In this document: positions 1 to 32,457 of the stretch, in pieces
Layout: every line of letters starts with the position of its first letter
Position numbering within the stretch: the stretch's first letter is position 1
Virus record (IMG/VR): IMGVR_UViG_3300007513_001761
Location: 32,001-96,000 of that record
Length of the DNA stretch: 64,000 nucleotides
Origin: a virus
Direction: 5' to 3' (one strand)
Notes under the pieces: generated by a model
What the model saw: the letters and a program-made list of their open reading frames with translations, nothing else
The model's database searches: none
Told to the model about the DNA's origin: nothing
Made by a program: the position numbers and the translations under genes

Positions 1-3000
1 GTAGGACCATTGCCAATCATATCTTGAGAGTATGCGATTTTCAAAGTTTCAAGAGAGCCGCCCAGCGTGGCTGACACTGTGTCTGCTACTTCGTCCGGTT
101 CGTAGGGTAAAATACCGTTGTCACAGCCAGGATCCGAGAGCATCGGTGGAGTATTGTTTTCCAAAAATGGTCCCAACCCTCCCTGAAAAATGTCTCCAAT
201 GTCTCCTAAATCTTCCAAAGCTTGATCGGTATAGCTTTGACACATCTTTTCGCTCTGTGCTGGTGAAAGCCTTCCTTCTAGAAGTTGCATGCGCATGTTA
301 CACATTTCTTCCTGTTGTTCCTCGGTTAAACAGAGAGAGGGACTTATTGCCTCTTCGGGAACTTGGTCAAGAGCTTTTTTCATCTCTTCTTTAAAGTCGG
401 CGGGCATTACATTTCCCATGTTCCTAAAAGTAGCCGCAATCGTGCTAGGACCCTTTAGGCTCGGGCGAAATTGAGGGAACTCGTATTTTACAATATCATC
501 TACAGCTTTTAAGAACTCTGGTGATGGGTTTCCAAGATAAGCTTCTTGAACTTCTCTAGCTGTCGAATTATTGGAGACCTCTTGTGTAAATCGTTGTACT
601 TCTTCCGAGTCGGTAAAAGCAGCACCCCCGTTTCCAAAAGATTGAAATAATTCAGTGATTGTAGCATCAAGAGTTTCGTCATCAACATCATCGCCGCAAA
701 TTGACTCTCTAATTGCATCAGCTACAGTGTTTTGATTGCTAAACGCTGCTGCAGTCATATCACCGACCAATTCTAATGCATTACAAATCGCTTCACTTAA
801 AATTTCACACAATTTAATCATGAGTAATTCCCAAATTTTAGCGATTAGTTCTGCAATTGCTGCTTTGGCGGCCAACTTTATCCAATACCACAAACTTACA
901 AACTTATCAAAGGGCGGAATAACAAACTGTGGCCACGCAATTTCATCCATATTCCGACAAATCGGTAAAGACAAACTTTTTATAAAATCAGCAGCGTTGG
1001 GATTAAAAAACGCGGTATTAGGACATGTAAGGGCAGCAAAAATATAACCAATAATTGGGGCGCCCGGAAAGTTGCCTAACATGTCCATTAATGATAATTC
1101 ATCTCCCAAATAAACTTCTAGCAACGCCTGAATATAAGCTTCCATAATGATATCGTTGCTTAGTTGTCCACTAACACTTCCAATGTCCACACTGGGTCCT
1201 AGGGTTCTGCGGTTTTCTTCTACATGAGAAGCCCAACCAGAATACGAAACAGAACCATATGGTCCTTCGGCGCGCGTTGCAAAGTCGCCTTTTTGAACAT
1301 CTGCAGTAGCGGCGGCCCATGGTCCTACTGGCTCTTCATCGCCATAATCGTAGTTTCCTACCACGGCATCGCTAGCCTGCTCGTTTGCTGAAGCAGATGA
1401 GAAAATATCCCCTTCTGAAAGCTTTTCATTCATCTTGTCCGACAACTCTTGTTGTTTATCAGCGGGAAGTCCAACAAACAAATCTCCAAAGTTTTCAATA
1501 GACATTGCTCGCAGTGCGCTTTCAAGCATTTTTCCTAACGCTTGCTCTAAGGTAAGACCTCCAAACAAACATTCGAGCGCTTTAACCATAAGGTCTAAAA
1601 GTCCACACAGTTTTAGGCGATTGAATTTTTCGCGACCACTCTTCCGCTCGTCGCGGTTGCCTTTTCTCTGTTCATTCCAACTTATTGCGGCGTACTTAAC
1701 ACTATTTTCCCCCCCTCTCTCGTAATTGAAAACCCAATTGCAAAAGTCAGCAAACATGTCAGCATCTTGTTGAATCTCTTCTAAGGCTTGTTCTTTGGCC
1801 AAAGTTTTAATTTTAGCTTTGTCTACTTTCCAGATAGATTCACCTGTGGCAACAGTTTTGGGCTCATTCCAGGTTGTAGAATCCTCAGCCGCTGCTGCTA
1901 GAAGCTCGTCAGAAGTCATTTCTCTTTGAACCTGGCTTTCGCTAAGGAGTATTTCCAGTTCTTCTTTTAGTTTTTCCATGTCTTCTGTTGTGTAATTGCA
2001 TGTAAAATCATGGAACATATAAGCTATAGCATCTCCGAGACTAAAAGCTTCATCTAAAATATCCTGACCTAATTCTTTTCCTTCTTCTAAAAGTGCTTCA
2101 GCTATACAACTGCGGCCCGTATGTTCACCCGACGCATCATATTCAGAGTTGGCTGTGTCGTAAATTTCAGGATATGTATATGTTTTAAGAAAATCTAACC
2201 AATCTGTGGGTTCTCGCGCTGTTAATTCCTCTACCATGTCGCGTGCCTGAACAAAATAAGCTACGGCTGTGGAATCAGACCACGCTGAAGTTGATACCAA
2301 TAATTCATCCAGGGCAGTGATTATAATTGGCTCTTCTACACATCCTTCAGCTTCAATTTCAAGTTCTTTTAAAACATACTCGCTAGTAAATGTAAAAGTA
2401 ATGCTACTAACGGCCCTGTTCCACGTAAAGGTATCAGAAAAAGGGCCCCCGGTGCCCACTATGTTATAGTTGCGCTTGTTAAGAAAAGCATCCAATTCCG
2501 GCAAAAGCTTTCCAACTTCAGAATTTTTACTACTCCAACCATAATCACCATATAAATCTAACGAAAACACAGAGTTATCGCTTAAAAATTTCAAATTACC
2601 TTGCCCTGTGCCACGGTAAACATTTAGATAGCGCGTATAAAGGAAGAGAGATTTGCGCACTTTCATTAACAATTCAAACATCTCTGACGACGCATACCAC
2701 ACTTCTATGTCGCCATCTTCATTTTCGGCGCCTTCTTCTTCAGAATCAGCCGCGTCTATAGCTTCTAAATTTTCATAAGGCACAGAATAAAGTAATTTTA
2801 ATCTGCTCATGGAACGCAATCCGACATAATAGTCAGTATGCTCTACCACTTCTTTCAAAATATCTATAGATGCCTGAGAGGTGTCTTTATTATAAGCCAG
2901 CAATAAGGCGGCAAGAGCGGCTTCCTCATATGTTCTCTGCAAATTTGCTACTTCCAAATCAGCTTGCGTATTTACTTCTTCTTCAGATAAGGACTCTATA

Positions 3001-3239
3001 TCTTCCATAAGCCCTAAGACGCTATTTTCCGCTGTTTCATAGGTAATTTGATACATACACCTTCTTTCATTTAAAAAAGGAGTATATTCGTCTAAAGTGC
3101 GCCAATTAGGAAGAATGGCAGCGCTATTGGGAATACACGGCGGGCACTCATCGGGAGCAACGGTTTCTATCGGCTCACAAACATCATTGAGTCCATCGCC
3201 GTTCGCATCTTGAAATGGTAAAAATTTGGATTCAGACAT
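1..3239 (-). CDS. Large acidic protein, probably virion structural (>1079 aa, runs off left edge)
   Basis: Missing from the ORF track because it has no stop in the window. Manual translation from ATG at 3239 (MSESKFLPFQDANGDGLNDVCEP...) stays open to base 1. AAGGA SD upstream; follows the spike-like gene. Confidence 0.75.
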   Translation of the reverse strand, partial: MSESKFLPFQDANGDGLNDVCEPIETVAPDECPPCIPNSAAILPNWRTLDEYTPFLNERRCMYQITYETAENSVLGLMEDIESLSEEEVNTQADLEVANLQRTYEEAALAALLLAYNKDTSQASIDILKEVVEHTDYYVGLRSMSRLKLLYSVPYENLEAIDAADSEEEGAENEDGDIEVWYASSEMFELLMKVRKSLFLYTRYLNVYRGTGQGNLKFLSDNSVFSLDLYGDYGWSSKNSEVGKLLPELDAFLNKRNYNIVGTGGPFSDTFTWNRAVSSITFTFTSEYVLKELEIEAEGCVEEPIIITALDELLVSTSAWSDSTAVAYFVQARDMVEELTAREPTDWLDFLKTYTYPEIYDTANSEYDASGEHTGRSCIAEALLEEGKELGQDILDEAFSLGDAIAYMFHDFTCNYTTEDMEKLKEELEILLSESQVQREMTSDELLAAAAEDSTTWNEPKTVATGESIWKVDKAKIKTLAKEQALEEIQQDADMFADFCNWVFNYERGGENSVKYAAISWNEQRKGNRDERKSGREKFNRLKLCGLLDLMVKALECLFGGLTLEQALGKMLESALRAMSIENFGDLFVGLPADKQQELSDKMNEKLSEGDIFSSASANEQASDAVVGNYDYGDEEPVGPWAAATADVQKGDFATRAEGPYGSVSYSGWASHVEENRRTLGPSVDIGSVSGQLSNDIIMEAYIQALLEVYLGDELSLMDMLGNFPGAPIIGYIFAALTCPNTAFFNPNAADFIKSLSLPICRNMDEIAWPQFVIPPFDKFVSLWYWIKLAAKAAIAELIAKIWELLMIKLCEILSEAICNALELVGDMTAAAFSNQNTVADAIRESICGDDVDDETLDATITELFQSFGNGGAAFTDSEEVQRFTQEVSNNSTAREVQEAYLGNPSPEFLKAVDDIVKYEFPQFRPSLKGPSTIAATFRNMGNVMPADFKEEMKKALDQVPEEAISPSLCLTEEQQEEMCNMRMQLLEGRLSPAQSEKMCQSYTDQALEDLGDIGDIFQGGLGPFLENNTPPMLSDPGCDNGILPYEPDEVADTVSATLGGSLETLKIAYSQDMIGNGP

Positions 3240-3270: not shown

Positions 3271-4311
3271 TTATGTTATGTTAACATTTCGACTGCATAT
3301 ATAGCGACTCGCGTTAGGATCAGTGTAATGTTGTCGCCAAGCCAATATCTGCCCTTGTTGAGACCATGCTGGGCCCGAGCCCTGGATGTTACATGCTGCG
3401 AGCGCGCTGGCTAAAGCGGCGGTTTGTCCGCCGGCGACCATGACCGGGTTTGTTCCCACAACCCCAATTATTGCCTGTTGAACAAGATTCATTGTAAGAG
3501 CCACTCCAGCTATAGAATCGACAATCGCTGCCAACTCTTTCAACGCCTGAAGAAGGTTTTCTCCCATAACTGCTGGCTGTAAGTAATTTAAGTGAGGATC
3601 ATGATCTGGAAAGAAAATCTTTCCAATCTCCAATATGGCTTTTGGAATTAAAAGTTCGCGACCAGCGGCATTGTTGCCGGCGATCAAATCAATAGTGGCT
3701 GCCTGTTCTATGCTGCCTCCTTTAGAGTTTGTTTCGCCCAAAAGACCCAGACCTTTGGCACCTTGTGTGCGTCCAGTTACAATTTTTACGCCTTCGTTTC
3801 CGAAGATGCGCACCTTATCAGCTTTCATGCCCACGGCCGATGAGGGTTCTTCCGGATCTCCCGTTTTACGTGCAATTCCAAAATTCGTGTCTATTGTGGT
3901 AAGAGTACTAATATAAATGCGAGCCGCGTCGGCTACAAAATTACGATTAACAATCATTCCATCACAGGGTCCCTTAGAACCACGAGATTTGGCCGCCAGA
4001 CCGACGACTAAATCGATAGTATCGCCAACGCCAAGGGCGCCGAGTCCCGAAGCTTCGGTAGAAGGGCGATCTAATCCGAAGATTAAATGCGCATTATTAT
4101 GAGACATCACCTTTTCGCCCTGGGCCGCATTGAATGTGATGAAGGGTTGAATAGGTGGGGTATTCATCAACCCACCTGTTGCTGTGTTAACAGGTGTACC
4201 TTGATCCATCAAGTCTTGAGGTGTTGCTGGTACCTCAGACTCCCCAGTCCCTTCCGGACATCTCTCAAATGTGTCTTTGTTGAAAAGTTTTCGCTTGCCT
4301 TTTGATGCCAT
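3271..4311 (-). CDS. Putative baseplate central spike (gp5/VgrG C-terminal-like) protein
   Basis: Beta-rich Gly/Val stretches (ADAARIYIS, SAVGMKADKVRIFGNEGVKIVTG) and a hydrophobic helical C-terminus; next to cell-wall hydrolase genes. Confidence 0.5.
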   Translation of the reverse strand: MASKGKRKLFNKDTFERCPEGTGESEVPATPQDLMDQGTPVNTATGGLMNTPPIQPFITFNAAQGEKVMSHNNAHLIFGLDRPSTEASGLGALGVGDTIDLVVGLAAKSRGSKGPCDGMIVNRNFVADAARIYISTLTTIDTNFGIARKTGDPEEPSSAVGMKADKVRIFGNEGVKIVTGRTQGAKGLGLLGETNSKGGSIEQAATIDLIAGNNAAGRELLIPKAILEIGKIFFPDHDPHLNYLQPAVMGENLLQALKELAAIVDSIAGVALTMNLVQQAIIGVVGTNPVMVAGGQTAALASALAACNIQGSGPAWSQQGQILAWRQHYTDPNASRYICSRNVNIT

Positions 4312-4329
4312 TTTTTTACTCTCTCCCTA

Positions 4330-4336
4330 TAAATAC
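4330..4336 (-). promoter_or_regulatory. Candidate phage promoter motif GTATTTA
   Basis: NTAnTTA motif directly before the GGGAGAG SD of the gene starting at 4311. Confidence 0.4.
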
Positions 4337-4362
4337 TCTCTTATTGTAAATCTGTGTATCTA

Positions 4363-5682
4363 TTATTCATAGTTTTTACACACATTAGTGGACGGATCTG
4401 ACCATTTTTTACACACAGCGCATGCAGCGTGAGATTTACAAAAATCCTCAACTGACCAAAATGAATCTAAATACCTTCCAAAGCTTATTTGCCCTTGAGA
4501 ACACAAATAGCCGGGGCCTTTTACCCATGAATTAAGGGCAGTCGTATAGTTCCAAACGTCTTCTTTAGAAGTACTAGATAGCCCTTCTATTTCGCTAGAA
4601 TAAGTTCCGCCTTTTCCATGAAGTATCCAGCCCGCTACCGCTAATCCTGTTCTGTCGGCGCCGTGTTTACAGTGTACTAAAACGTTCCCTTTTGCAAATT
4701 CTTTATTAAACGCACTAACCGACTCCTGGAAGCCTTGCCCCTTGATACATCCTTGATGGGCTGACATTTTCTTATATTCAATTTTTTTGCCGGCTGTTTT
4801 TTTATCTAAATATTCGATGTAAGCCTCTTCTATTTCCATCGTGATGCAGGTTGCCATCTGCGGATCCCATCCATATTCGCTATCCAAATCGTCGCGATTA
4901 AGACGAATAAATGTTGTAATATTATCTGTTTCAACCATGTATTTTATTTCACCCAATGTGGGCTGCTTATATCTATAGTTGTTGTTTCCTATCGCTAGAT
5001 AATTACCACTTGGTTTTTTTGCAGTGACAGAATCAAAATTCAAAACACCAGGCGGCACTGTAGCTGGACATTTGCCACCATCGGGGCGCTGTCCTGGGGC
5101 GGCCGTGTCTTGTACGGGATCATAACTCTTCAAGCGGGCAATCGTATTGATCAAGAATTTACCGCTCAGCGGCTCACACTGGGGCTCTTTTGGATCTCTT
5201 AAGTTGGCGCGCTCAATGAGCCGAGTTACAATGCCATGTTGAGAGTTTACTGTGTTTGTTTCTCCGTTCATATTTAAGGTTATTTCTACTATGTCGTTTT
5301 GTCGTATAGGAGAATCAGTAGAGGTTTGGTAGTCGGCAGACGTTACACACAAAGTATGCAATTTAATCAATTTAACGGCTTCCGCAATATTGCTAGTGGA
5401 ATCAAGATTACAGGGGTTTGGCAAATAATGATGCGGGCTTTTCTCGTAAAGATCATCCTTTATTCTCACTCTTATAACATAGCGTCCTATTTGAGCATCT
5501 CCAGTATTTCGGCCAGTTCCTGTATATCTATCTAAGTCGCGTTGAGAGAGAGGGAGGGCATCCGTAAGCGCTACACCTTTGAACACCTTAATTTCTCCTC
5601 GTTTTGCATTAAGCTGATTTTGAGATGCCCACATCAACAATTCTAAACGCATACGAGGCGTTGTAAATGTAGTTTTATCCAT
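4363..5682 (-). CDS. Shared N-terminal domain fused to a protein tyrosine/dual-specificity phosphatase
   Basis: HCKHGADRTG matches the PTP CX5R active site; N-terminal ~190 aa paralogous to the next two genes; TAATG overlap at 5682. Confidence 0.8.
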   Translation of the reverse strand: MDKTTFTTPRMRLELLMWASQNQLNAKRGEIKVFKGVALTDALPLSQRDLDRYTGTGRNTGDAQIGRYVIRVRIKDDLYEKSPHHYLPNPCNLDSTSNIAEAVKLIKLHTLCVTSADYQTSTDSPIRQNDIVEITLNMNGETNTVNSQHGIVTRLIERANLRDPKEPQCEPLSGKFLINTIARLKSYDPVQDTAAPGQRPDGGKCPATVPPGVLNFDSVTAKKPSGNYLAIGNNNYRYKQPTLGEIKYMVETDNITTFIRLNRDDLDSEYGWDPQMATCITMEIEEAYIEYLDKKTAGKKIEYKKMSAHQGCIKGQGFQESVSAFNKEFAKGNVLVHCKHGADRTGLAVAGWILHGKGGTYSSEIEGLSSTSKEDVWNYTTALNSWVKGPGYLCSQGQISFGRYLDSFWSVEDFCKSHAACAVCKKWSDPSTNVCKNYE

Positions 5683-6917
5683 TAACATGGCGGATCCAAT
5701 TTGCTATGTCCAAGCGACATGCTTATATAATCAGCGCGGGTGTCAATCGAGAAATCACCACCTGAGTTTTGATCGATGAATGTTTGTCTATCGCGCCCGG
5801 ACTTGAGCGATGCCCAATCATCAGCCAAAGAAAAACTGTCTGGCTTACCAATTGCCCGTGGCCAAAATACATACATATATGCATCCCCTTGATTGGCAAT
5901 GGCGCGGCCTTTCGGTTTATCAAAGTATTGCTCTACAAGCTCTAGTTGTTGATCCCAATTCATCGCATATACCTTAGTCTGTGCAGCTAATCTGTCAGCA
6001 TCCGAAAAGGGTCGAGAATATCCTTGCAGTCCTGCTGATGTGTCTGGCATAAACTGTATTAAACCAACAGCACATTTAGTCAAACGTGTAGAATGATCAG
6101 AATAGCGGCCTTCACAGCCGATATTTATCTCTTGAGGATCAAAGCCACTCTCGCCATTGATAATGTTAGCCAGCCAACCTGGATCAAAGTTAGCACTAAT
6201 ATTATTGGCAACTTTTACAATTCCGTCTGCCTGGTGTTGGCTCAGCCCATATGCTTTCATCAAATCTGCGGCTGTACGGTGGGAGGCTTTTCCGGAAAGA
6301 GAGCATTTAGTAGTTACAGGTCCGGACGAGTGATCGGCTAGCAACGTTAGTTCTGAAGTGTCGAACTTGCCTTGCAAGCTCTCACAGAGGTTTTGTAAAA
6401 AAGGATCGTACTTTGCTTTGGAAACAATTTGAATTATTTCTCCATGATCTGTATGAATATTACCTCGTGAATCGACGGTCATAGTGACTCTTACTTTGTC
6501 ACCTCTGCGCACTATAGAATCACTACTTATGCTAAAGTCTTCAGACGTTACATATGTTGTAAACATTTTTATCATCTTAATAGTCGCGACTAGATCTGGA
6601 GTTTCTCCAATCCCACAAGGATCTATTAAAAAGCGATGAGGGTTTTCTATAGGCTTCAACATATCTCCATTAGCGTTCCCAACGATCATGGCTTTAATGA
6701 TATAACGTCCAATGGTAGCTGCGTCTATTGCGCCTATTGGTCCATTTTTGGTATAATTGCGCTGCTGCTCTCGGCTTAATGGAACAGCGTCTGTTAGTGC
6801 TATAGCAGTAAATTCACGAATTTCGCCACGTCCACGTCGATTAAATCGTATTTCAAATTTATCCGCAATCGATAGGCGCAGTGCTTCTTCGGGAGTGGTG
6901 GGGTAGTCAACAGACAT
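5682..6917 (-). CDS. Shared N-terminal domain fused to a lytic transglycosylase/lysozyme-like domain
   Basis: ESGFDP and AVGLIQFMPDT are SLT-like motifs. Confidence 0.8.
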   Translation of the reverse strand: MSVDYPTTPEEALRLSIADKFEIRFNRRGRGEIREFTAIALTDAVPLSREQQRNYTKNGPIGAIDAATIGRYIIKAMIVGNANGDMLKPIENPHRFLIDPCGIGETPDLVATIKMIKMFTTYVTSEDFSISSDSIVRRGDKVRVTMTVDSRGNIHTDHGEIIQIVSKAKYDPFLQNLCESLQGKFDTSELTLLADHSSGPVTTKCSLSGKASHRTAADLMKAYGLSQHQADGIVKVANNISANFDPGWLANIINGESGFDPQEINIGCEGRYSDHSTRLTKCAVGLIQFMPDTSAGLQGYSRPFSDADRLAAQTKVYAMNWDQQLELVEQYFDKPKGRAIANQGDAYMYVFWPRAIGKPDSFSLADDWASLKSGRDRQTFIDQNSGGDFSIDTRADYISMSLGHSKLDPPC

Positions 6918-8075
6918 TTAGCCTTCCACCATGGGGCCTTCGGCTGCATCAGTCCCTGCTGGGCTCGTGGGATCTGTAGAAGCAACAGCGGGTGCAGTCG
7001 GATCATCACATTTTTGAATTGCCTTAATAAAGGGAGTTGCGTCCATGGGACTAGAACCTTTCCAAAGCTCCATATGTAAATGAGGGCCGGTACCCACGCC
7101 GGTATTTCCAACCTTTCCAATAAGATCTCCGCGACTCACGAGGTCTCCCGCCTTAATATGTGTGGGCTTCTGTGCCATGTGAAAATATTTCGTTTTATAG
7201 CCACTCCCGAGTCCTGTGTGTTTAATGTTAACGGAATTGCCTTGGCGCGTCTTGCCATCCCATGCATAAACTTTATCAATTACTCCATCAGCGGCTGCAT
7301 ATATTGGCGTGCCCGTCGAAGCTCCCCAGTCGGTGCCCTGGTGTTCTTCGCCGCCTCTAGGTCCATAGGGGCTCGTAATGGGATATGAATCATTCATTAA
7401 TGGATGCATCAAATAGAACTCAGAGTATTCTTCTGCACACACTTCTGCGTCTATCGTTATAGACGGAATAGATGTCTCTAACAACTCAATCGTATTAACA
7501 GTGAATTGTCCCTGTAAGCTTTCACATGAATCAAATTGCGGACGTGCAGGATCTGCGGCTTCTACCACTCCTAGAATTTCTCCTTGCTCCATGATCAAAG
7601 CTCCATCGCCACCTACCTGTAAAGTCACTTTAATGATATCATTCCTGTTTATGTTCATCCCGGAACTTATATCGTAGTCTGTGCTGGTGATGAATGTCGG
7701 AAACATTTTAGCTAATGCGATTGAAGTGGCTATATCTGGCGTTTTTCCCAGGCTACAAGGATCGACCAAATAACTGTGTGGGTTTTCAATAAACGGCAAT
7801 CGGTTACCAATCGCATCTCCAACGATAATGGCCTTTACCGCAGAGCGGGCTATTTTGGAATCATCCGGAGAGCTTGTCGTCGAAACAGAGGCTAGCCCAT
7901 ATCGTTCCAACATTTTCTTGCGCGAAAGTGGCACACCGTCGGTAATTGCACGGGCAGTGAACTCTCGAATTTCGCCTGGGAACCCAACGGTTGCTTTGTT
8001 TTGTTTTTGCGCGGCGTAGAGTCCTATCTTGGCCCTAGCCATTGTAAAATCACTATAATCAAGTGGCATCCACAT
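6918..8075 (-). CDS. Shared N-terminal domain fused to an M23 peptidase
   Basis: HQGTD and GPHLH zinc motifs, GTPIYAAADG, VGNTG. Confidence 0.9.
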   Translation of the reverse strand: MWMPLDYSDFTMARAKIGLYAAQKQNKATVGFPGEIREFTARAITDGVPLSRKKMLERYGLASVSTTSSPDDSKIARSAVKAIIVGDAIGNRLPFIENPHSYLVDPCSLGKTPDIATSIALAKMFPTFITSTDYDISSGMNINRNDIIKVTLQVGGDGALIMEQGEILGVVEAADPARPQFDSCESLQGQFTVNTIELLETSIPSITIDAEVCAEEYSEFYLMHPLMNDSYPITSPYGPRGGEEHQGTDWGASTGTPIYAAADGVIDKVYAWDGKTRQGNSVNIKHTGLGSGYKTKYFHMAQKPTHIKAGDLVSRGDLIGKVGNTGVGTGPHLHMELWKGSSPMDATPFIKAIQKCDDPTAPAVASTDPTSPAGTDAAEGPMVEG

Positions 8076-8364
8076 TATCTCCTTGAATTAAATCAAAGAG
8101 AGAGTTTTTGTCATCTTCGGTAAGCTCTACCTCTCGCCCAGAAGCTTTGTGTTTAAGACCGATAAGCTTTACTAGCTGTTCATTGGAACGTTGCATTGTT
8201 TCAATGTGTTTGGCGGCTACAGGGCTCAGATATTTGTTTTGTTCTGCATCTTTGGCAATGGCGTTAGCAATCTCATTTAAAAACTCTCGGGCCACTTTGC
8301 GGTCATTACGAATGTTGCCAAGCGCCTCTTCCATAAGTTTTTTTAAATCTTCTTGTTTGCTCAT
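8059..8364 (-). CDS. Helical hypothetical protein (possibly terminase small subunit-like)
   Basis: 101-aa coiled-coil ORF overlapping both neighbours; resemblance to gp16 is only architectural. Confidence 0.5.
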   Translation of the reverse strand: MSKQEDLKKLMEEALGNIRNDRKVAREFLNEIANAIAKDAEQNKYLSPVAAKHIETMQRSNEQLVKLIGLKHKASGREVELTEDDKNSLFDLIQGDNVDAT

Positions 8365-9065
8365 AATACGCCACTCTCCCAGTCTTGCTTGAACAGGTAA
8401 TACTTTTTTCTAAATTTCTTTAGAGAATTAACAATCTGTTTGGTGTTAAGTCCAGTAATCTCTCTCAAGTATAGGTAAATAGCTTTTTTGTTAAAAATTT
8501 CTATATCCTCTTTCGACTCAAATAAGATAATAATGGCTTTATAAACTTTAAGATCATTTTCCTTCATTTGGGAAGTGTCCCAAGAACTAAGTTCTGTGTG
8601 GAATGAGAGCCAGAATTCTTCGTCTTCTCTCTCGGTCACATAAGATTCATTCGTCGATAGATACTCTTCTTCGTAAGCTTTTGAGACATTTTCATAATCA
8701 ACCTCGCGCATGCTGCGTTTTTGCTGCTGCTTGACTTTATGAATGAACCAATTCTTAGTAATAACAGAAAAATAGGAAAAGGCTTTGGAGCCTTTAGTGG
8801 GGTCGTATTTATCTAAAATGGTCATAAGCCATATCTTACATTCGTCGCGCAAATAGTCGCAATTAGGAAGATTCGTAAATTTATAAGTAAAAACTATTTT
8901 ATCCACCATTTCGTTAAAAGCAGGCTGGATGAGGTTTACATATAACTCAGTTCTTTCTTTTATGCAGTCTGTGTTGCTATATCGGATAATGGCATTTTCA
9001 TGGACAACGGTAAAATAGTGATTACTCTTTTTGGCCGCTCTCTTCTTCTTCGTTTTCTTCATCAA
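8361..9065 (-). CDS. Phage RNA polymerase sigma factor (sigma70 region 2 / gp55-like)
   Basis: LDKYDPTKGSKAFSYFSVITKN region-2 motif; C-terminal HTH-like LREITGLNTKQI. Confidence 0.75.
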   Translation of the reverse strand: MMKKTKKKRAAKKSNHYFTVVHENAIIRYSNTDCIKERTELYVNLIQPAFNEMVDKIVFTYKFTNLPNCDYLRDECKIWLMTILDKYDPTKGSKAFSYFSVITKNWFIHKVKQQQKRSMREVDYENVSKAYEEEYLSTNESYVTEREDEEFWLSFHTELSSWDTSQMKENDLKVYKAIIILFESKEDIEIFNKKAIYLYLREITGLNTKQIVNSLKKFRKKYYLFKQDWESGVL

Positions 9066-14323: not shown

Positions 14324-15162
14324 TTTTTCGCCTTATCCTTGTTAAGTAAATATTGCCCCTGCTCTATGGTGCCAAAACGCCTAGGCCAAACCGAATGATT
14401 GCCTCTCCAATTATCATAATCGATACAAATCGACCTTATGTTGACTATATCTGAGCTACAATAATCATATTGAAACAGGGGCTTGTCATTATATACAAAA
14501 GCTCCAATAATAGGGCTATTTTGCGCATTTCTGTCGGGATCCCACACGCATCTCATTATAATTTTTGGAGAATAATAAACAACGGAACCATTTCGTTGTG
14601 CGCGAAAGCCAAGATCGTGTACGTTCATATTCATGTGTTCATATCTACAATCAAGTCCACCAAGTTGTCTATAATAATTTGTATTAATCATCATAACACA
14701 GGGAATCTTCCAGTGTGGTTGAACCCCTGGAAGGTTTGTGTCTGTGTGATACGAAACATTATAATATTCTAAAGGAAATTCCTTTTGGCGGCCTTCTTCG
14801 GTATCGCTCTCCGTATATCTCATAGTAATAATATCAATCGGTTGTTTTTCTTTTATTAACTCAATTGCTAAATCAATTGAATTTTCTTCAATTTCGCCAT
14901 CATCAGTTAGCCACGTTAGATAAGTGCCTTCGGCAAGATAACCTGCCAATTGAAAACATCTAGATGGAGTGCCGAAATCTCTGATAAACTTTACATTTAT
15001 TACATTATCGAAATAAGGAGGAAGTCCTTTTGGTCCGCAGAAAATAATTTCAAATGTATATTTTTTAACTGCTAATTTAGTTCTCTCATAGAGAGATTCC
15101 CAATTTTCCGGTTGAATTCCTGGAACAATGATTGATAAGTCATATGTACCTTGATTGATCAT
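14320..15162 (-). CDS. Glycosyltransferase, GT-A/GT2-like (paralog 1 of 3)
   Basis: LSIIVP, TDD acidic motif, LGGLDCRYE. Confidence 0.7.
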   Translation of the reverse strand: MINQGTYDLSIIVPGIQPENWESLYERTKLAVKKYTFEIIFCGPKGLPPYFDNVINVKFIRDFGTPSRCFQLAGYLAEGTYLTWLTDDGEIEENSIDLAIELIKEKQPIDIITMRYTESDTEEGRQKEFPLEYYNVSYHTDTNLPGVQPHWKIPCVMMINTNYYRQLGGLDCRYEHMNMNVHDLGFRAQRNGSVVYYSPKIIMRCVWDPDRNAQNSPIIGAFVYNDKPLFQYDYCSSDIVNIRSICIDYDNWRGNHSVWPRRFGTIEQGQYLLNKDKAKK

Positions 15163-15761
15163 CTCTTGATCGCCTCCACGTTTAAGCTCATCAACATCCC
15201 ATTGACCTTATCCATGTGCGGCAAATGAGCCTGACTGCCATCGTCAATAAAGAAATGTTCCGTTTCCTTAAAAGAATAAATTCGAATGTCTTCTTCTGCA
15301 AATCCTACTTCTATGAGAAATTTCTTTAACAACTTAAAATCAAAAGTAATGTAATGAATGTCATACTCGTTTCTTTGACCCCCGTGCAAAAGTCCATGCA
15401 ATTTTTCTAAATCGGCGGTGAGTAAATAATATTTTATTACTTTTTCAAAGTCAGGCACAGATAATCGTAAAACACCATTTGGCCGAAGAAGTTCTTTCCA
15501 TCGCAATAAAACACTTTTGATTTCTTTTCTTTTAACATGTTCAAGCAAATGAGAAGCATAAATCAAGTCTACAGATGAATCTTCGATACTTTCCAGAGTA
15601 AAAACATTATCTATAATATCCGGAGAAACTTCTTGTCGAGCATCAATATTAATCCATCCGTGAAATTTGCGGCTAGAGCAACCTAAATTAAGTTTGATTC
15701 CTTGTGTCTGTTTTATAGGATCGGCCATATTAGTACCAACTCCTGTTTTCCTGTCGTTCAT
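15159..15761 (-). CDS. Class I SAM methyltransferase
   Basis: LNLGC, SHLLEH, LRPNGVLRLSVPD. Confidence 0.85.
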   Translation of the reverse strand: MNDRKTGVGTNMADPIKQTQGIKLNLGCSSRKFHGWINIDARQEVSPDIIDNVFTLESIEDSSVDLIYASHLLEHVKRKEIKSVLLRWKELLRPNGVLRLSVPDFEKVIKYYLLTADLEKLHGLLHGGQRNEYDIHYITFDFKLLKKFLIEVGFAEEDIRIYSFKETEHFFIDDGSQAHLPHMDKVNGMLMSLNVEAIKR

Positions 15762-16546
15762 TGAAATCTCCTTTTCCAGACAGCCGGCGCTTTCTTCCAG
15801 TTGTCTAATCTTATCTTTGGTTGAACGTGCATTATCCAGTGAGGATCACGGAAGCGTTTCTGCAATAACGGTTCATCATGCTGATGTTGACATTCAAAAA
15901 TTGGCATGTGGTCGCCGGTACCTCCGGGCATATGATCACAAGCGAAAAGGGGAATTTGAGCCATTTCTACTTTTGCTCCAACGTATTGAGCCCGGATGGC
16001 CATATCGGCATGCGATGCCCAGGTTCCCTCGTAGCTACAATCCCAACCACCCAAAGAATTAAAAAAATCTGCATACATAAACGCAATATTAAATAACCAC
16101 CACTCTTCGGGGACATGTGGCGAGCCTGCTGGTGTGTTACATATTTTAAAGTATGCGTCTGGTTGAAGGGTTTGTCTTTCATTGCTTCCTTTTTGACCCT
16201 CATAATATTTTGCCACTAAAACGTTATTTTGTGCAGTCCCCATATCATAAAATTCGTCCATGCACTGATCCAGCGAGTTCTCAAAGAATAAACAATCATC
16301 CGCGAGCCATGTATAAACTTTACCCTCACACAAAGACGCAGCGATATTCGATGCTCTCACGGGAGAGCCGTAATCTTTCACATATTTGACATGTTTCAAA
16401 TCCTTCAGGGCATCCGGCAGCGGATTAGGACCGCAAATTATCAATTCAAAACTACGCTTTGTAGAAGTAAGAATTGATTCATAAAGCTTTTCAAGTCTTT
16501 CTGTCCGAATACTGGGGAGAATAAGAGAAATCTCTGGCTGGCTCAT
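15758..16546 (-). CDS. Glycosyltransferase, GT-A/GT2-like (paralog 2 of 3)
   Basis: ISLILPS, LADD, LGGWDCSYE. Confidence 0.7.
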   Translation of the reverse strand: MSQPEISLILPSIRTERLEKLYESILTSTKRSFELIICGPNPLPDALKDLKHVKYVKDYGSPVRASNIAASLCEGKVYTWLADDCLFFENSLDQCMDEFYDMGTAQNNVLVAKYYEGQKGSNERQTLQPDAYFKICNTPAGSPHVPEEWWLFNIAFMYADFFNSLGGWDCSYEGTWASHADMAIRAQYVGAKVEMAQIPLFACDHMPGGTGDHMPIFECQHQHDEPLLQKRFRDPHWIMHVQPKIRLDNWKKAPAVWKRRFQ

Positions 16547-17556
16547 TCTTTACCTCGCATGTATTCAATCACTTCTCGCACAGATTCTTCCAAAGACACT
16601 TCAGCTTCAAAGCCCAAAAGCTCTTTGGCTTTTGTTGTGTTAGGGATGCGCTTTTGAACGTCATATTGGCATGCTTCATCCGAAACCGTCGAGAATTCCA
16701 AATCTGGGTTTAGGATACTCCACACAAGTTGCGATAGCTCAAGCACAGAGGTGGCCAGAGGGGTGGAAATATTGAAATCGTTGTTGTGTGCGTCTTCACT
16801 TTCTAGAGCCATTCTGATGCCTCTGGCGATGTCTTTACCGTTTGTGTAACATCGGACTTGTTCTCCCGAACCTAAAATATGCAGAGGGTTCTGTCCTTTC
16901 ATAATCTTGTTGATGATATCTGGAAGAACGTGACTCATCATTAGCTTGATATTGCCAGATTTAACCTCGTGTTCTCCGATGGCGTCTTCTTCGCCAACAC
17001 CCACGCAGTTAAAGGGGCGGATGATCGTGTAGGGAAGGTCGTACTGTTCCAAGGCTCCCTTGCAGAAGTATTCAACAGCCAACTTCTGGAACCCGTAAGT
17101 GCTCAGTGGCGGCGCACAAGTTTTAATTTCGCTTTCTGGCGTTGGGTAAACGGCAGTATTCTCGAAAACCATGCTGCTAGACAGCACAATAATGCGCTCT
17201 AAAGCCTGAGTTTGGTGAAGTTTAATAGCCAAGTCAAAAGTTGACGCCAGAATGCGCTCGTTTGTGGCCAACAAATCGTAAGCATATTTATGGAAATATG
17301 TGATACCACCGATCATAGCTGCGCCGGCAACAATGTATTGAATATCTTGAAGTACTTCTGGAACATTATTCGGATCAAAGTCAATCACATCCATCTCAAT
17401 CAGATGAAAGTTTGGATGAGTATCGTGAGGGCGTGTGATTGGCCCATACTTTGAGAAGTTGTCAACCCCAACAACCGTGTATCCTTTATCCAAAAACTCG
17501 GCACACAGGTATGAGCCGATAAAGCCTTGACTTCCTGTGATTAGTATTTTACTCAT
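16543..17556 (-). CDS. NAD-dependent NDP-sugar epimerase/dehydratase/decarboxylase
   Basis: GSQGFIG, YGFQK (YxxxK), RPFN. Confidence 0.9.
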   Translation of the reverse strand: MSKILITGSQGFIGSYLCAEFLDKGYTVVGVDNFSKYGPITRPHDTHPNFHLIEMDVIDFDPNNVPEVLQDIQYIVAGAAMIGGITYFHKYAYDLLATNERILASTFDLAIKLHQTQALERIIVLSSSMVFENTAVYPTPESEIKTCAPPLSTYGFQKLAVEYFCKGALEQYDLPYTIIRPFNCVGVGEEDAIGEHEVKSGNIKLMMSHVLPDIINKIMKGQNPLHILGSGEQVRCYTNGKDIARGIRMALESEDAHNNDFNISTPLATSVLELSQLVWSILNPDLEFSTVSDEACQYDVQKRIPNTTKAKELLGFEAEVSLEESVREVIEYMRGKE

Positions 17557-18377
17557 TAGTTTGGACTCATTGGTTGGCGTGGGATCATATTAATATAAGT
17601 TTTATCACTTCCTTTTCTCTTTGCCCAAATTGGAATCCCTATCGTTTGACAGGGTATTACCACGACTTCTTCACCAAAAGAATCATATACAGCCTGTATT
17701 ACGCCAGGATGGCACCCAGTTTTTTCGTCTAATTGTAAATAATGAGAGTTAATCTGTTCATCAGTAAAAGTGTTGGCCAAGTTTATATCTAAGCAATCAT
17801 GCCCACAAATAATGCCACCTTCTTTTACCTTCGGCAAATATGCTTCAATATCTCTCTTAACACCTTTATAGGTGTGATCCGCATCAATAAAACATAAATC
17901 TAACGAATTATCGCGTATGTGTTTGCTCATTGCAACCGAATCCCCTTTCAATATTTCCACTGTGTCTTCTATGTTGGCCGCTTTCAAATTATGCTGCAGT
18001 CTTTGTTCTGTTAACATCATCTGGTTTTCATCATTATCGTAAGCGTGGCGATCTCCTCCCTTTAAAGTACGCGGCGAATCGTGCCCTTCGTTTCCTTTAA
18101 ACCAATCGATAGCATATATTTTTCCGTTTAAATTTTTTATCGTAGGTGCGTAGTGTAATAATGTTTCTCCACACCAAACACCAACTTCAGCCATCGTAAA
18201 GGTGGGTTTTATTACACTGTGGATCAGCCAAAGCAACGCATCAATAGGTTCATCTTGTATAGCTAATGGCATTACGTGTATACCCCCTTCTTGTACCTCC
18301 AACCAATACGGGATGCCGTTAAGCAAATAAGGTCCATTATTAAGCTTTCGATAATAGCTGAGTTTGTGTTTTTTCAT
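17556..18377 (-). CDS. Class I SAM methyltransferase (Methyltransf_24-like)
   Basis: EVGVWCG, FIDADHTY, GGIICGHD. Confidence 0.85.
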   Translation of the reverse strand: MKKHKLSYYRKLNNGPYLLNGIPYWLEVQEGGIHVMPLAIQDEPIDALLWLIHSVIKPTFTMAEVGVWCGETLLHYAPTIKNLNGKIYAIDWFKGNEGHDSPRTLKGGDRHAYDNDENQMMLTEQRLQHNLKAANIEDTVEILKGDSVAMSKHIRDNSLDLCFIDADHTYKGVKRDIEAYLPKVKEGGIICGHDCLDINLANTFTDEQINSHYLQLDEKTGCHPGVIQAVYDSFGEEVVVIPCQTIGIPIWAKRKGSDKTYINMIPRQPMSPN

Positions 18378-19393
18378 TTTAGCTTTCCTTTGGTATATGG
18401 CAACATTTCAAAATCAGCGGCACGAAAAGTATGAATAATGTCCATTATTTCATCCGTATACCAATCTAATATGTTTTCAGGCATATATTCTTTCCATTTC
18501 GCCCCCAAGTTTAAAATATGCGGCATTTTCATAGATTTGCGCGGTATCTTTTGGTTTACACATAACCGATTATAATCTTCTTCGATGTGTTCTAATCGAA
18601 TAAGATATAATGGTCGCAGGGGATCGCCAACGAACTGATCACCTGGCGAAAGGTAAAAGGCTTGATCCGGCAGACCCCCAAATCGCATGCTCTGCGGATC
18701 GACAGAAGGACGTGGTCCTGGGGTTGGGAGTGTTGGGCAATCCCAAGCATCAGTCACATGTGGATGTGGGGCTCTTCCTGCATGCGCACTGTTTATCATC
18801 CACTGTTCCCATGCTTTTTGTACAAACTCTCGCTTCTTTAAGGCGTCGGCGCGGGCAAAATTGAGATCTTTCAGCTTGTTTTGGAGAGTATGAGAATTTT
18901 GATAAAAAAACCATGAAACTTCTCTGGTGTACGGGTTCCTGCAGCTTCCGTAAAATGTATACTCATCCATCTCCAAAAAGCTTTTATATAGAGAGAAGCG
19001 CGGATCGCCCATAAGCTGCAACCACCAAAACAGAGGTAAATGTTTTATATTTCCCTGTCCAACATCCGGGATCCCGGATGTGACACTAAAAACAGCATCT
19101 GCCCCCCACAGCATGTGTGGGAGACGATAGTCTATTGGGATATCGTTCGCTATAGCCCACTCAACCCCTCCATCATGTTTCGCTGCGGTGCTGTATACCC
19201 AGGGCGACCACCAGGGGAAATCTTCACCGGGCGGGTAAATAGCTGCAATAGCGCCTTTTCCCAGGCGCGCGTCTTCTTCTTCATATACCACAGAACACTC
19301 TTGACCTGTGTCCGCATGAAGGGCTGTATTAATAGAAGTTCCGCCGGCTTTAGATGTATGAATGTATATAAATCTATATTTATTAGAAATCAT
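18374..19393 (-). CDS. Sulfotransferase family 2-like protein
   Basis: FIYIHTSKAGGTSI (5'-PSB loop), RNPYTREVS (3'-PB), IRLEH, DFEMLPY. Confidence 0.75.
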   Translation of the reverse strand: MISNKYRFIYIHTSKAGGTSINTALHADTGQECSVVYEEEDARLGKGAIAAIYPPGEDFPWWSPWVYSTAAKHDGGVEWAIANDIPIDYRLPHMLWGADAVFSVTSGIPDVGQGNIKHLPLFWWLQLMGDPRFSLYKSFLEMDEYTFYGSCRNPYTREVSWFFYQNSHTLQNKLKDLNFARADALKKREFVQKAWEQWMINSAHAGRAPHPHVTDAWDCPTLPTPGPRPSVDPQSMRFGGLPDQAFYLSPGDQFVGDPLRPLYLIRLEHIEEDYNRLCVNQKIPRKSMKMPHILNLGAKWKEYMPENILDWYTDEIMDIIHTFRAADFEMLPYTKGKLK

Positions 19394-20175
19394 TTTCGCA
19401 TCCCCTTGAAAACTGTAACTCTATATTTACTGTTTTCATCCAAAAGATCTTCGAAAAAGTCTACTCCAGTATCCGCCATCAACTTGGCCATGGCAGAAAC
19501 ATCTTTGGGCAAACACATTCCCCCAAACCCTCTGAAGTTATCATTACATTCTAGATAATTGCTGTGGATGTGCTTTCGTTTAACGACAGCATTCTTTACA
19601 TTGGTATAGTCAACACCTTGTATTTTGCATGCTTCGTAAAAGCTGTTAGCAAAAATAATCAGCATTGCGTTGTATACGTTGTTGAAATACTTACAGAATT
19701 CTGCCTCGGAGGGCGTCAGGCGCACAAATTCGTCCGGAAAGGAGCCGTGACAATCTTTGAGGATCTTGTAGGTCTTGTCGTCTTCGCAACCTAAAATACA
19801 AACATCGTGATTTTCGGTGAAGTCTGTGATGGCGCACCGCTCACGCAAAAACTCGGGAACGAAGCAAACGTTCAAACCTGTTTCTTCGCGAAGGCGATCT
19901 GTTGTTCCAGGAACGACTGTAGACTTAATGGCTACAATGCCTTCATAACCTTTTGTTTTAAGTTCACCAATGACTTCTTCAACGATTGAAACATCGCAAG
20001 ACCCGTCATTATCGCGTGGTGTTGGTACACAAATGAAAACAGCTTCAGTGTCTAAAACCGCATCGATGGTGGTACCCAAAACAATATCGTGTGCGGACAC
20101 ATTATGGCCCAACAACTCAAATCCAAACTGACAGGCACCACCTACCACGCCGATTCCTACAACTCCAATATTCAT
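19390..20175 (-). CDS. ugd: UDP-glucose/GDP-mannose dehydrogenase family (short form)
   Basis: GIGVVG, CVPTP, IKSTVVPGTT, PEFLRE, GFGGMCLPKD. Confidence 0.9.
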   Translation of the reverse strand: MNIGVVGIGVVGGACQFGFELLGHNVSAHDIVLGTTIDAVLDTEAVFICVPTPRDNDGSCDVSIVEEVIGELKTKGYEGIVAIKSTVVPGTTDRLREETGLNVCFVPEFLRERCAITDFTENHDVCILGCEDDKTYKILKDCHGSFPDEFVRLTPSEAEFCKYFNNVYNAMLIIFANSFYEACKIQGVDYTNVKNAVVKRKHIHSNYLECNDNFRGFGGMCLPKDVSAMAKLMADTGVDFFEDLLDENSKYRVTVFKGMRK

Positions 20176-21002
20176 TCGTATCCAAGCTCCTTGTAACTCT
20201 GCGGCAATTTGCCGTCTTTAAATTCAAACCTTCGTTTCCAAATCGGAGATGATTGTTGCCAGTTGTCTAAATCTATTTGAATGCGCTGGTTGGCAGCGGC
20301 AGGCTGCATATAAATCTCATCAAACTTGGGCTTGTCAGAGAATGTTTGCGCATCGAAGATTGGTGCATGATCCTTTGTCTTGTTAACATAATGATTACAT
20401 GTAGTTGCGTCCGTTTGAGAGTCGAACAAGCGCCCCCCATCAGCCTGAACTCTGAACATCAGATCGTGAAGGGGATGGTTGATGTATTCAAATTGACAGT
20501 CCCAGCCGCCAAGCTCCTTAAAGTAATCCATCATCATAAAGTGATGAAGAGAGATCTTATATTCCTGGGGGATCCCTGGTAATCTCAGTTCGTTGTGGAA
20601 GTGTGCAGTCCAGAATCCCATGGGGAGCGTTTGTCCGCCGTACATCGCGCCTTCTCGATAGCGCATGTTGATTACATCTTTAGTTGTGCAAATATCGCGA
20701 TGAAATCTAACAGCATTGTCGATAGCATCCGGCAAGAAGATCGCATCATCTACGCAGTGATACATATACTCGCCTGTACATTGCAAGGCGCCAATTTGTG
20801 CGGCCCTAGTCGGGGCGCCATAATCCTTAATCAATTTGACATTATCAAAGTGAGTCATTTCTGAAGGTAAATCAAAAGGACTTACCAACACCAATTCCCA
20901 AGTATGCTCTTTGCATGCGTTAAATAAACTGCCATACATCATCAGCCATTGGTGCGTTCGAATTGCCGGCATTAAAACCGATACATCATACTCAAAGCTC
21001 AT
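20172..21002 (-). CDS. Glycosyltransferase, GT-A/GT2-like (paralog 3 of 3)
   Basis: VSVLMPA, CVDD, LGGWDCQFE. Confidence 0.7.
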   Translation of the reverse strand: MSFEYDVSVLMPAIRTHQWLMMYGSLFNACKEHTWELVLVSPFDLPSEMTHFDNVKLIKDYGAPTRAAQIGALQCTGEYMYHCVDDAIFLPDAIDNAVRFHRDICTTKDVINMRYREGAMYGGQTLPMGFWTAHFHNELRLPGIPQEYKISLHHFMMMDYFKELGGWDCQFEYINHPLHDLMFRVQADGGRLFDSQTDATTCNHYVNKTKDHAPIFDAQTFSDKPKFDEIYMQPAAANQRIQIDLDNWQQSSPIWKRRFEFKDGKLPQSYKELGYE

Positions 21003-21963
21003 AGCCTACTCCTCCCATAACTTCATTCCAAAAGGTTGTGGCGTTGAATTTCTTCTTGTAAATTTTGTAACCTTTCTCTACAATATAATTCCTTTCTTTC
21101 TCGTTGTCAAGATAATACTGCATCTTTTCTACCAAATCTTCTTCGTTTTCAAACTCTACATAATGCACGCTTGGTTTCAGGTAGTTTTCGATGGGGCTGT
21201 TTTTCCGCTCTAATAACAACGACTTACTTGCCAGGATCTCCCAGACGCGACCTTTACATTGGTCATAGCCATCGGGACCCTCTGGGAAGTTGAGGCTAAT
21301 CTTGCTTTGTCTCATTAATTGAGCATAGCGCTCGGGGCTTAAGCCTTCTTCGCGTTGACCTCCTCCCACATGAACCTGAACCCCGTTGGTGATAAGGTGA
21401 GTCAAATAACGTTGTCGCTCTGGATATCGAGGAGATCCTAAAAAGCTCACATTAATCGTTTGATGTTCTTTGCTCTCAATTGGATGATACAAGTTTTCGT
21501 CTTGAGGAGCCCAGAGCCACACTAAGTTATCAATCTTGGTGTTAGTGTTGCGCTCGGATCCCCAGCACACATGCAAGTCCGCAAATCCTTTCTCGTTCAG
21601 TTCTTGGATTTCGGGCAATCCCCACCCATCAAAAACATCGGGCCACATAAACACGGTTTTGCATCCCTTTTCGCGGATGTATTCATAGCTTGCTGCTGTA
21701 GGGTTTAAATGGGATTTCCCCAAGAGAGAAAAAATCACCACGGTTGGCTCAACCCGATCAATAAGGGTTGGCATAAATGCGTCAATGTGCTTCTTTTTAA
21801 TGAGAGAATACTCATCCATATGCACAATGTTGAATTCTACATCGGGGTATGTTGTTTTAAACGTTCGAAACAAGTTGTGATAGTTGTTTGTGAGTCCTCG
21901 GGCCGGATTCGCGTCACACCATTTCTCTGTTACAAACAACACTTTTGCGCTATTTTTCTCCAT
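20992..21963 (-). CDS. Glycosyltransferase, GT-B (CgeB/Glyco_trans_1_2-like)
   Basis: SFLGS, SKISLNF, KGRVWEIL, YYLDNEKER. Confidence 0.8.
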   Translation of the reverse strand: MEKNSAKVLFVTEKWCDANPARGLTNNYHNLFRTFKTTYPDVEFNIVHMDEYSLIKKKHIDAFMPTLIDRVEPTVVIFSLLGKSHLNPTAASYEYIREKGCKTVFMWPDVFDGWGLPEIQELNEKGFADLHVCWGSERNTNTKIDNLVWLWAPQDENLYHPIESKEHQTINVSFLGSPRYPERQRYLTHLITNGVQVHVGGGQREEGLSPERYAQLMRQSKISLNFPEGPDGYDQCKGRVWEILASKSLLLERKNSPIENYLKPSVHYVEFENEEDLVEKMQYYLDNEKERNYIVEKGYKIYKKKFNATTFWNEVMGGVGYEL

Positions 21964-22489
21964 AATAATCTCCATATTCAACCACTAAAGTGCTTTTTCC
22001 GTCAGTTCTATTATATGCCTTATAATATGCTGGGAATATATCCGATGGTTCTTCCAACCGAATCACTTCAATGTTATTTACCATCAATCGCAAACCATCG
22101 GTAAAATCGCCAACATGTTGCGCTTGCGGATGTAGTGGCCTTTCGGATCCAATTCCAGTGCGGATGATAACCTTTGGGATGTATTCCCCATGCGAGAATT
22201 CAGGCATCCTGTCTAAGTGATTGATTAGCTGATTCATTGTGAGCAACAAAAAGTTCCATCTAGGATAAATGCTAATTGGCACCGTACCGGCCACTGCAAG
22301 TCCGTTGGTGATGCCCATCTGCATTTCTTCATCTACGGGCATTTCTAAAAGCTTTTCTCTCGCGACATCCTGGAGCGTGTTAGTCATTGCTGTACCTTTA
22401 TAGGCAACCGCTTGTCCTAAAAACAAGGTATCTGGCTGTTCTCCCAGATAGGTCATGGCTCTCTGCAATTCGTCAAAATACTGTCCCAT
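21950..22489 (-). CDS. ThDP-dependent enzyme, E1-beta/transketolase pyrimidine-binding subunit (short)
   Basis: LGQAV, EMPVDEEMQMG, NQLINH, QH. Confidence 0.8.
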   Translation of the reverse strand: MGQYFDELQRAMTYLGEQPDTLFLGQAVAYKGTAMTNTLQDVAREKLLEMPVDEEMQMGITNGLAVAGTVPISIYPRWNFLLLTMNQLINHLDRMPEFSHGEYIPKVIIRTGIGSERPLHPQAQHVGDFTDGLRLMVNNIEVIRLEEPSDIFPAYYKAYNRTDGKSTLVVEYGDYYGEK

Positions 22490-30649: not shown

Positions 30650-30656
30650 TAATACC

Positions 30657-31418: not shown

Positions 31419-31449
31419 AGTTTTCTCGTATTTTTAAATGTTATACTAC

Positions 31450-32404: not shown

Positions 32405-32457
32405 AATAATTTCTCCTTTATTAATATAACAACAAATTGAAGAGTTGTTTATTTTAT

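Follow-up and report, generated by a model that had tools for sequence, protein, structure and literature searches.

Among described tail-tip proteins, the closest to those considered here is gp5 of phage T4. It is cleaved into a part that carries an oligonucleotide/oligosaccharide-binding (OB) fold and a lysozyme, termed gp5*, and a beta-helix part, and the two remain together (PDB 1k28). In evolved VgrG proteins of type VI secretion, the spike subunit has an OB domain and a C-terminal effector that varies, and several paralogs that differ in their effectors can be combined in a single trimeric spike; VgrG1, VgrG2, and VgrG3 of V. cholerae form mixed trimers. The central spikes of phages Mu (gp45), P1, phiKZ, and A-1(L) (gp25) likewise open with an N-terminal helix that leads into an OB fold. 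Here, three tandem genes of an uncultured virus are compared with these systems. They lie in a 64,000-nucleotide stretch of DNA, referred to as the window, that spans positions 32,001 to 96,000 of the IMG/VR record IMGVR_UViG_3300007513_001761 (113,248 bp, linear, 61% complete by CheckV), and each joins the same kind of N-terminal carrier domain to a different enzyme.

The favored reading, to which a probability of about 0.6 is given, is that the three genes encode gp5*-like tail-borne proteins, each anchored by its OB domain at or close to the tail axis and equipped with an exchangeable enzyme that acts on the cell envelope. The products would be tail-tip proteins, located at the center of the baseplate in the virion of an uncultured marine myovirus of ~200 kb. 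Their N-terminal helix and OB barrel most likely dock under the baseplate hub on the tail axis, like the OB domain of T4 gp5, and tail contraction would bring the C-terminal enzyme into the host periplasm. The functional counterpart would be gp5*, the OB and lysozyme product of T4 gp5 cleavage. The needle probably comes from a separate gene, for which a 346-residue protein encoded directly downstream is a candidate. This phage would carry one enzyme that cuts peptide bonds (M23), one that cuts glycan strands (lytic transglycosylase), and a putative Cys-based phosphatase.

The carrier domain and its enzymes

Every gene of the record, including the three paralogs, lies on the minus strand. Paralog 1 (6918-8075) is an open reading frame of 385 residues with an N-terminal helix and OB carrier (~7476-8075; family hidden Markov model (HMM) E 1e-50) and an M23 metallopeptidase domain at residues 244-345 (~7041-7346). 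Paralog 2 (5682-6917; 411 residues) has its carrier at 6333-6917, followed by a lytic-transglycosylase-like domain at residues ~236-400. Paralog 3 (4363-5688; 441 residues) has its carrier at 5119-5688, then a Cys-based phosphatase domain and a Cys-rich C-terminal tail; its likely start is the ATG at 5682 (439 residues), which is the start used by relatives.

The three proteins are alike only in their first ~190-200 residues, at 33-43% identity by BLASTP. The pairwise values are 43% over 168 residues (E 1e-40), 35% over 157 residues (E 2e-27), and 33% over 203 residues (E 3e-30), and beyond the ~200 N-terminal residues BLASTP finds no significant pairwise similarity. A preliminary description of this DNA had proposed three paralogs that share ~190 N-terminal residues and then diverge, and the reading frames, the BLASTP comparisons, and an alignment that contains all of its listed motifs confirm this. 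Its claim of tight gene coupling is likewise correct: the genes are translationally coupled, with the TAA of paralog 1 followed at once by the ATG of paralog 2, a TAATG overlap between paralogs 2 and 3, and an overlap of 11-17 nt between paralog 1, the first gene of the array, and the 101-residue gene upstream. The 346-residue gene is preceded by a spacer of 51 nt that contains a separate Shine-Dalgarno-like site. Matches to the T4 late-promoter motif TATAAATA show no enrichment (7 vs 4.3 expected).

A profile of the three N-terminal domains retrieves 251 cluster representatives among 1.84 billion proteins, 62 of them below E 1e-10. The carrier is N-terminal in every family member and starts at residue 1, and most of the proteins are 370-460 residues long. 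No Pfam or PHROG family spans it. Judged by these sequence searches, the carrier domain is a real, large, and unnamed family. Two cysteines are kept in nearly all carriers, one in a PDPC motif and one in a C..L...F motif; in paralog 2 they are residues 101 and 178 (window ~6615-6617 and ~6384-6386). A disulfide between them is possible and would be in keeping with a virion protein exposed outside the cell.

The preliminary description had assigned an M23 peptidase, an SLT/lysozyme-like domain, and a CX5R phosphatase to the three C-terminal halves, and the matches agree with these assignments, at differing strength. Paralog 1 matches Peptidase_M23 (PF01551) at E 2e-25, with 89.2 bits against a cut-off of 28.7, and retains the zinc motifs HQGTD and HLH. 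Paralog 2 falls just under the Pfam cut-off for SLT (E 5e-4, 20.0 bits vs 21.3) and matches Phage_lysozyme2 at E 8e-3; its payload matches a lytic transglycosidase structure (9udh_A, PDB) at E 2e-9 and contains an NGESGF motif, and the protein also matches phrog_196, “baseplate hub”, at E 4e-14. Paralog 3 stays below the cut-offs for DSPc (E 9e-5, 22.7 bits vs 33.5) and Y_phosphatase3 (E 2e-4, 21.6 vs 22.2) and matches Tc-R-P of Pfam at E 6e-3. Its P-loop, HCKHGADRTG (~4645-4674), is intact.

In 10 phosphatase homologues from different phages, the loop (HC.HG.DRTG) never varies, nor do an upstream Arg and a Glu, which indicates that the active site is under selection; no general-acid residue is assignable from the homologue alignment. 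Searched against the PDB, the profile of the phosphatase family matches the baculovirus polynucleotide 5′-phosphatase BVP (1yn9) at E 1e-5, TpbA at E 1e-3, and the RNA-triphosphatase domains of capping enzymes at E 8e-3. The paralog shares the VHCxHGxDRTG active-site loop with BVP, with the periplasmic TpbA of Pseudomonas (4r0s), and with Tc-R-P, a polymorphic-toxin phosphatase. However, the likeness is limited to ~50 residues at the P-loop, and, unlike these enzymes, the phosphatase here is attached to a phage tail carrier and has an additional Cys-rich tail. The tail (FCK.H..CA.CK; window 4363-4560) ends the payload and is kept in homologues of other phages; it may be a metal or disulfide knot.

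The enzymes vary widely across the family, as the preliminary description had expected of relatives. Among 120 carrier-family members, Pfam identifies M23 in 20, VanY in 16, Amidase_2 in 8, Peptidase_M15_4 and Phage_lysozyme2 in 7 each, Muramidase and DUF2272 in 4 each, DSPc in 3, SLT in 2, and a GDSL lipase in 1. The C-terminal halves cluster into ~37 unrelated payload groups, many of which match no family. Two viral loci, L023 and L027, capture an exchange. Their DNA is ~96% identical on either side and their carriers are 93.6% identical, and yet the payload is fully replaced by an unrelated one (M23 vs an unassigned type); similarity stops just past the conserved Cys-x2-Leu-x3-Phe motif and returns at the stop codon. 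Similarly, the two copies of locus L016 have carriers that are 90.7% identical and payloads that are unrelated. The enzyme half is thus an exchangeable cassette, and it recombines just past the Cys-x2-Leu-x3-Phe motif.

Fold of the carrier domain and comparison with tail spikes

An AlphaFold2 model of the paralog 2 carrier, built from a 110-sequence alignment, has a mean predicted local distance difference test (pLDDT) score of 73.6 and shows a helix at the N-terminus (residues 9-21), then a barrel of five strands (residues 32-166) with inserted loops. Its VIA-align matches are OB folds. Many tail-axis proteins are found among them, each aligned through its own OB domain: T4 gp5 (1k28_A; Z 6.0, root-mean-square deviation 3.5, 92 aligned residues, gp5 residues 6-112), the P1 baseplate (9vzk_q; Z 6.0), the phiKZ central spike (6orj_A; Z 5.3), A-1(L) (8kea_D; Z 5.3, 107 aligned residues that include the N-terminal helix), Mu (9ki1_V; Z 5.0), VgrG1 (4uhv_A; Z 5.0), and the spikes of PVC, AlgoCIS, and the Streptomyces contractile injection system (Z 4.4-4.7). 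The central spike of A-1(L) consists of an N-terminal helix interwound with the C-terminus of the tape measure, an OB fold, and a beta-strand domain (PMC10966104). The helix and OB barrel of the carrier correspond to the first two of these elements.

The architecture agrees with T4 gp5 and gp5* in that an N-terminal OB fold leads directly into a peptidoglycan-cleaving domain, in paralogs 1 and 2, and in that the gene belongs to a baseplate module. It differs in that there is no sequence similarity to gp5, the paralogs end after the enzyme domain with no needle in the same polypeptide, ~37 exchangeable enzyme types take the place of a fixed lysozyme, one to three tandem paralogs take the place of one gene, and one payload is a phosphatase. 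VgrG fuses a gp27-like part, an OB fold, and a beta-helix, with the effector after the helix, whereas here the payload follows the OB fold directly, and neither the record nor five relatives contain the Phage_GPD (PF05954) part. The spikes of Mu, P1, phiKZ, and A-1(L), unlike the paralogs, run on into a beta-strand needle and lack an enzyme.

The tail-axis alignments bear on where the carrier docks. A virion-borne carrier held off the three-fold spike axis, whether in a six-fold ring around the hub, on the tape-measure protein or in the tube lumen (as an ejected protein), or on the 2,250-residue protein encoded nearby, is considered unlikely. The alignments are to the N-terminal OB domain of spikes, with the N-terminal helix included, and not to hub barrel domains; in addition, Pfam detects no separate OB and beta-helix spike in the complete relatives. 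On the other hand, OB Z-scores cannot tell docking sites apart, and the copy numbers of one, two, and three observed in the arrays all divide six, while a two-gene array misfits a symmetric trimer. The 346-residue gene might itself be a complete spike, with five or six strands at residues 67-172 of its model. A precedent exists in cyanophage A-1(L), in which the lytic domains are on the hub and not on the spike (PMC10966104).

The baseplate locus and its relatives

Loci that contain the carrier domain were fetched from IMG/VR (39) and from metagenomes (77). All have the same order: genes for a 91-residue and a 123-residue protein, a sigma-like gene, a 101-residue gene, one to three carrier-enzyme genes, the 346-residue gene, a giant gene, gp25, and gp6. 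In the record, the genes downstream are a 2,250-residue gene, gp25/W (PF04965, E 1e-12), a gp6/J-like gene (phrog_6, E 3e-23), a 669-residue gene, and a 3,232-residue gene. The neighborhood, in which the preliminary description placed a spike gene, is a contractile-tail baseplate module beside gp25 and gp6. The two genes that bound the array are the 101-residue gene (8059-8364, minus) directly upstream, which overlaps the start of the first paralog, is conserved in synteny, and has no Pfam or PHROG match, and the 346-residue gene (3271-4311, minus) directly downstream, which is present in every bounded array.

Two relatives are complete, at 203 kb (with terminal repeats) and 194 kb. A tail sheath gene in both of them identifies the clade as contractile-tailed phages of ~200 kb. 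Both also encode a separate Gram-negative-type endolysin, with a peptidoglycan-binding motif and Amidase_2 (E 1e-18) and without the carrier domain, ~100 kb from the baseplate locus (L126:1722-2678, plus; L127:1925-2836, minus). The 61%-complete record lacks the region that corresponds to this endolysin.

These genes argue against taking the paralogs themselves for modular endolysins, in which the N-terminal domain would bind the cell wall, the catalytic domains would be swappable, and the proteins would serve in lysis without being part of the virion. A conserved N-terminus with a variable C-terminal peptidoglycan hydrolase does resemble the modular endolysins of phages of Gram-negative hosts, and PHROGs labels the M23 part of paralog 1 “endolysin”. 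Nevertheless, the slot is fixed within the baseplate operon in >100 loci, with translational coupling to structural neighbors, a phosphatase payload makes no sense for lysis, and no holin-like or spanin-like gene is present among the flanking genes looked at. Together with the dedicated endolysin of the complete relatives, this makes a lysis role very improbable.

Pfam domains of known hubs and spikes are absent elsewhere. The record has no match to Phage_GPD, gp27 domain 1, Gp5_OB, Gp5_C (PF06715), or PAAR, five records of relatives have none to Phage_GPD, and the two complete genomes have none to gp27 domain 1 or Gp5_C. The carrier-enzyme genes and their conserved neighbors are hence the positional candidates for the hub-spike complex.

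Of these neighbors, the 346-residue protein has >715 homologues, all unannotated, and no Pfam, PHROG, or PDB match, a profile search of the PDB giving chance-level matches only. Its AlphaFold2 monomer (mean pLDDT 67.7) has a poorly modeled, beta-rich middle and a confident C-terminal helical hairpin, with five or six strands at residues 67-172 followed by GETNS..GG and IELIAGNN motifs. Fold searches return only generic coiled coils, which correspond to the helical end, and hhalign of its profile against T4 gp5 and against the carrier profile finds nothing. The ESM Atlas lists DUF2345 (0.84) and Gp5_C (0.83), as leads only. The label “gp5-C-terminal-like”, given to 3271-4311 in the preliminary description, could not be substantiated by these comparisons. 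The protein may be the needle, may itself be a whole spike that includes an OB domain, or may be neither. If it is the needle, the split between enzyme and needle falls at the place where T4 gp5 is cleaved. Given that the parts of gp5 stay together after cleavage, a split at the same place on the gene level is plausible. Homologues in L010, L015, L032, L016, and L043 have an extra 40-60 residues at the N-terminus, and several of these, not all, are from three-gene arrays.

Searches for cultured relatives were negative. Neither a nucleotide search of the region nor tblastn of a typical carrier domain and the 346-residue protein finds anything in 50,697 GenBank phage records, and a scan of GTDB genomes finds no relative. 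As far as these searches reach, the clade has no cultured member. A second scan of viral contigs, with the motifs of the window itself, finds only the one relative already known. By gp6, the cultured phages that come nearest are Microcystis phage Mel-JY01 and Flavobacterium phage immuto, with 30-31% identity, which have the sigma-like gene, gp25, and gp6 in common with the clade.

Several of these results weigh against the favored placement of the paralogs at the tail tip. The OB likeness is at the level of the fold: generic OB proteins score as high as the spikes or higher, with initiation factor IF1 at up to Z 7.6, IF1 and S1 domains at Z 6.4-7.6, and S1 and ribosomal OB proteins at ~Z 6, and every Z is below 8. 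No sequence or profile link joins the carrier to gp5 in hmmscan, hhalign, or a six-frame genome search; Gp5_OB (PF06714) gives no match at E<=0.1 in hmmscan and none at E<=10 in the six-frame search, and hhalign of the carrier profile against T4 gp5 gives a probability of 0.1. The ESM Atlas lists a Gp5_OB cluster for the carrier at 0.88, as a lead only. Foldseek finds nothing in the PDB under E 1e-3 for the carrier model or the 346-residue model, a PDB profile search with the carrier domain gives chance-level matches only, and BFVD returns only unannotated family members. Since spikes do not outscore generic OB proteins, all Z-scores are below 8, and a Gp5_OB link is missing, the likeness is fold-level agreement and not proven homology. 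Of the gp5/VgrG-type OB domain foreseen in the preliminary description, the OB fold stands, with gp5 at Z 6.0, and a specific tie to gp5 does not stand out, as IF1 and S1 match as well. Beyond the fold, no hub protein is recognized in the record or in the searched relatives, neither the carrier nor the 346-residue family occurs in any cultured phage among the GenBank records, and the 346-residue partner could not be shown by fold searches or hhalign to be a beta-helix needle. In Mel-JY01 and immuto, other genes occupy the slot, and these have no HMM or hhalign match to the carrier or to the 346-residue family.

The C-terminal 1,079 residues of the 2,250-residue gene (record positions 28487-35239) occupy window 1-3239 (minus), between the 346-residue gene and gp25. 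This protein is conserved in all relatives (phmmer E 0) and has no Pfam, PHROG, or PDB match; many cysteines of its N-terminus are invariant. The 2,250-residue product may function as tape measure or hub, or may be injected. The 3,232-residue protein (record 14578-24276), likewise conserved and part of the baseplate module, contains a Laminin_G_3 stretch and otherwise has no Pfam, PHROG, or PDB match. The 234-residue sigma-like gene (8361-9065, minus) lies upstream of the module and is among the most conserved of the clade, with homologues at E ~1e-125 in all relatives. It weakly resembles T4 gp55 (phrog_234, E 5e-4), and its homologue adjoins gp25 and gp6 in Mel-JY01 and immuto. The product may be a late sigma factor or a structural protein.

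Directly upstream of the tail module is a long run of sugar-nucleotide and glycosyltransferase genes (window 10210-31000, minus), including a heptose isomerase, a kinase/adenylyltransferase, an aminotransferase, epimerases, methyltransferases, and at least three glycosyltransferases. A PhoH-like gene lies at window 32458-33795 (minus; phrog_2765, E 1e-106). PhoH-like genes are typical of marine phages.

Copy number, assembly, and meaning

Of the 39 viral loci, some of which are cut by a contig end, 25 have a single carrier-enzyme gene, 8 have two, and 6 have three. Metagenome arrays bounded by the 101-residue and 346-residue genes have one copy in 43 cases, two in 4, and three in 4. The number never exceeds three in any array, including 80+ that are bounded. 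In a maximum-likelihood tree of 61 carrier domains, three-gene arrays have at least three independent origins. The first comprises the window and L005, which form a separate clade with support of 100/100, and the second is L011, whose carriers are 70-76% identical to each other. The third is a clade of L010/L013, L015, L018, and L032, in which the carriers group by their position in the array while the payload at a given position varies by phage. Support for the grouping is 100/99 at position 1, 98/88 at position 2 (3/4 phages), and 97/96 at position 3. As a pattern in the tree, this fits carriers with distinct roles, and an old triplication with conserved order could also account for it.

The phosphatase is an add-on payload that occurs only in arrays with another payload. 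Phosphatase payloads are found in the window, in five viral loci, and in six metagenome loci, every time in a multi-copy array beside at least one other payload, and in none of ~68 single-gene arrays; these counts are not phylogenetically independent.

Within the gp5*-like reading, the most likely arrangement is that all paralogs draw on one set of three OB sites, which they share or compete for. Trimers would then be mixed, and in old arrays the positions may be fixed. A stricter form is a defined heterotrimer on one three-fold axis, in which each carrier is adapted to its own position and the virion delivers a peptidase, a glycan-strand cutter, and a phosphatase. It is rather doubtful, and the hints that point to it are the limit of three copies, the at least three origins of triple arrays, the position-specific carriers, stop codons that overlap start codons, and the fact that the phosphatase never occurs without another payload. 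One-gene and two-gene arrays in relatives mean that a strict 1:1:1 heterotrimer, which the preliminary description had raised as a possibility, cannot hold across the family, and free mixing is expected of recent duplicates, whose carriers are nearly identical.

The near identity of those duplicates (91% in L016, 70-76% in L011) also suits a different arrangement, in which each paralog forms homotrimers and the carriers assemble interchangeably. With one spike per tail, each virion would then bear one kind, and the phage would produce a population of particles with different tips, a form of bet-hedging. Three observations make this quite unlikely. The overlapping stop and start codons suggest equimolar co-synthesis, the position-wise conservation of carriers in the L010/L015/L018/L032 clade suggests distinct and non-interchangeable roles, and the phosphatase is never alone in an array, so that a particle with the phosphatase only would have no wall-cutting enzyme.

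The carrier family defines a module, widespread among marine myoviruses and as yet unnamed, in which a small anchor with an OB fold takes dozens of enzyme heads and in which the copy number has risen to as many as three, several times independently. It offers a natural system for studying how phages fit their tools for penetration of the cell envelope to different hosts, and engineered tail-borne enzymes could be built on the anchor and its cassette boundary. The phosphatase head suggests that delivery by tail tips extends beyond wall-degrading activities. The module is also a direct test case for whether a phage spike can be a heterotrimer. If so, mixed VgrG spikes would have a parallel in phages, and the phosphatase would add a new type of phage effector, one that is injected or delivered to the periplasm.

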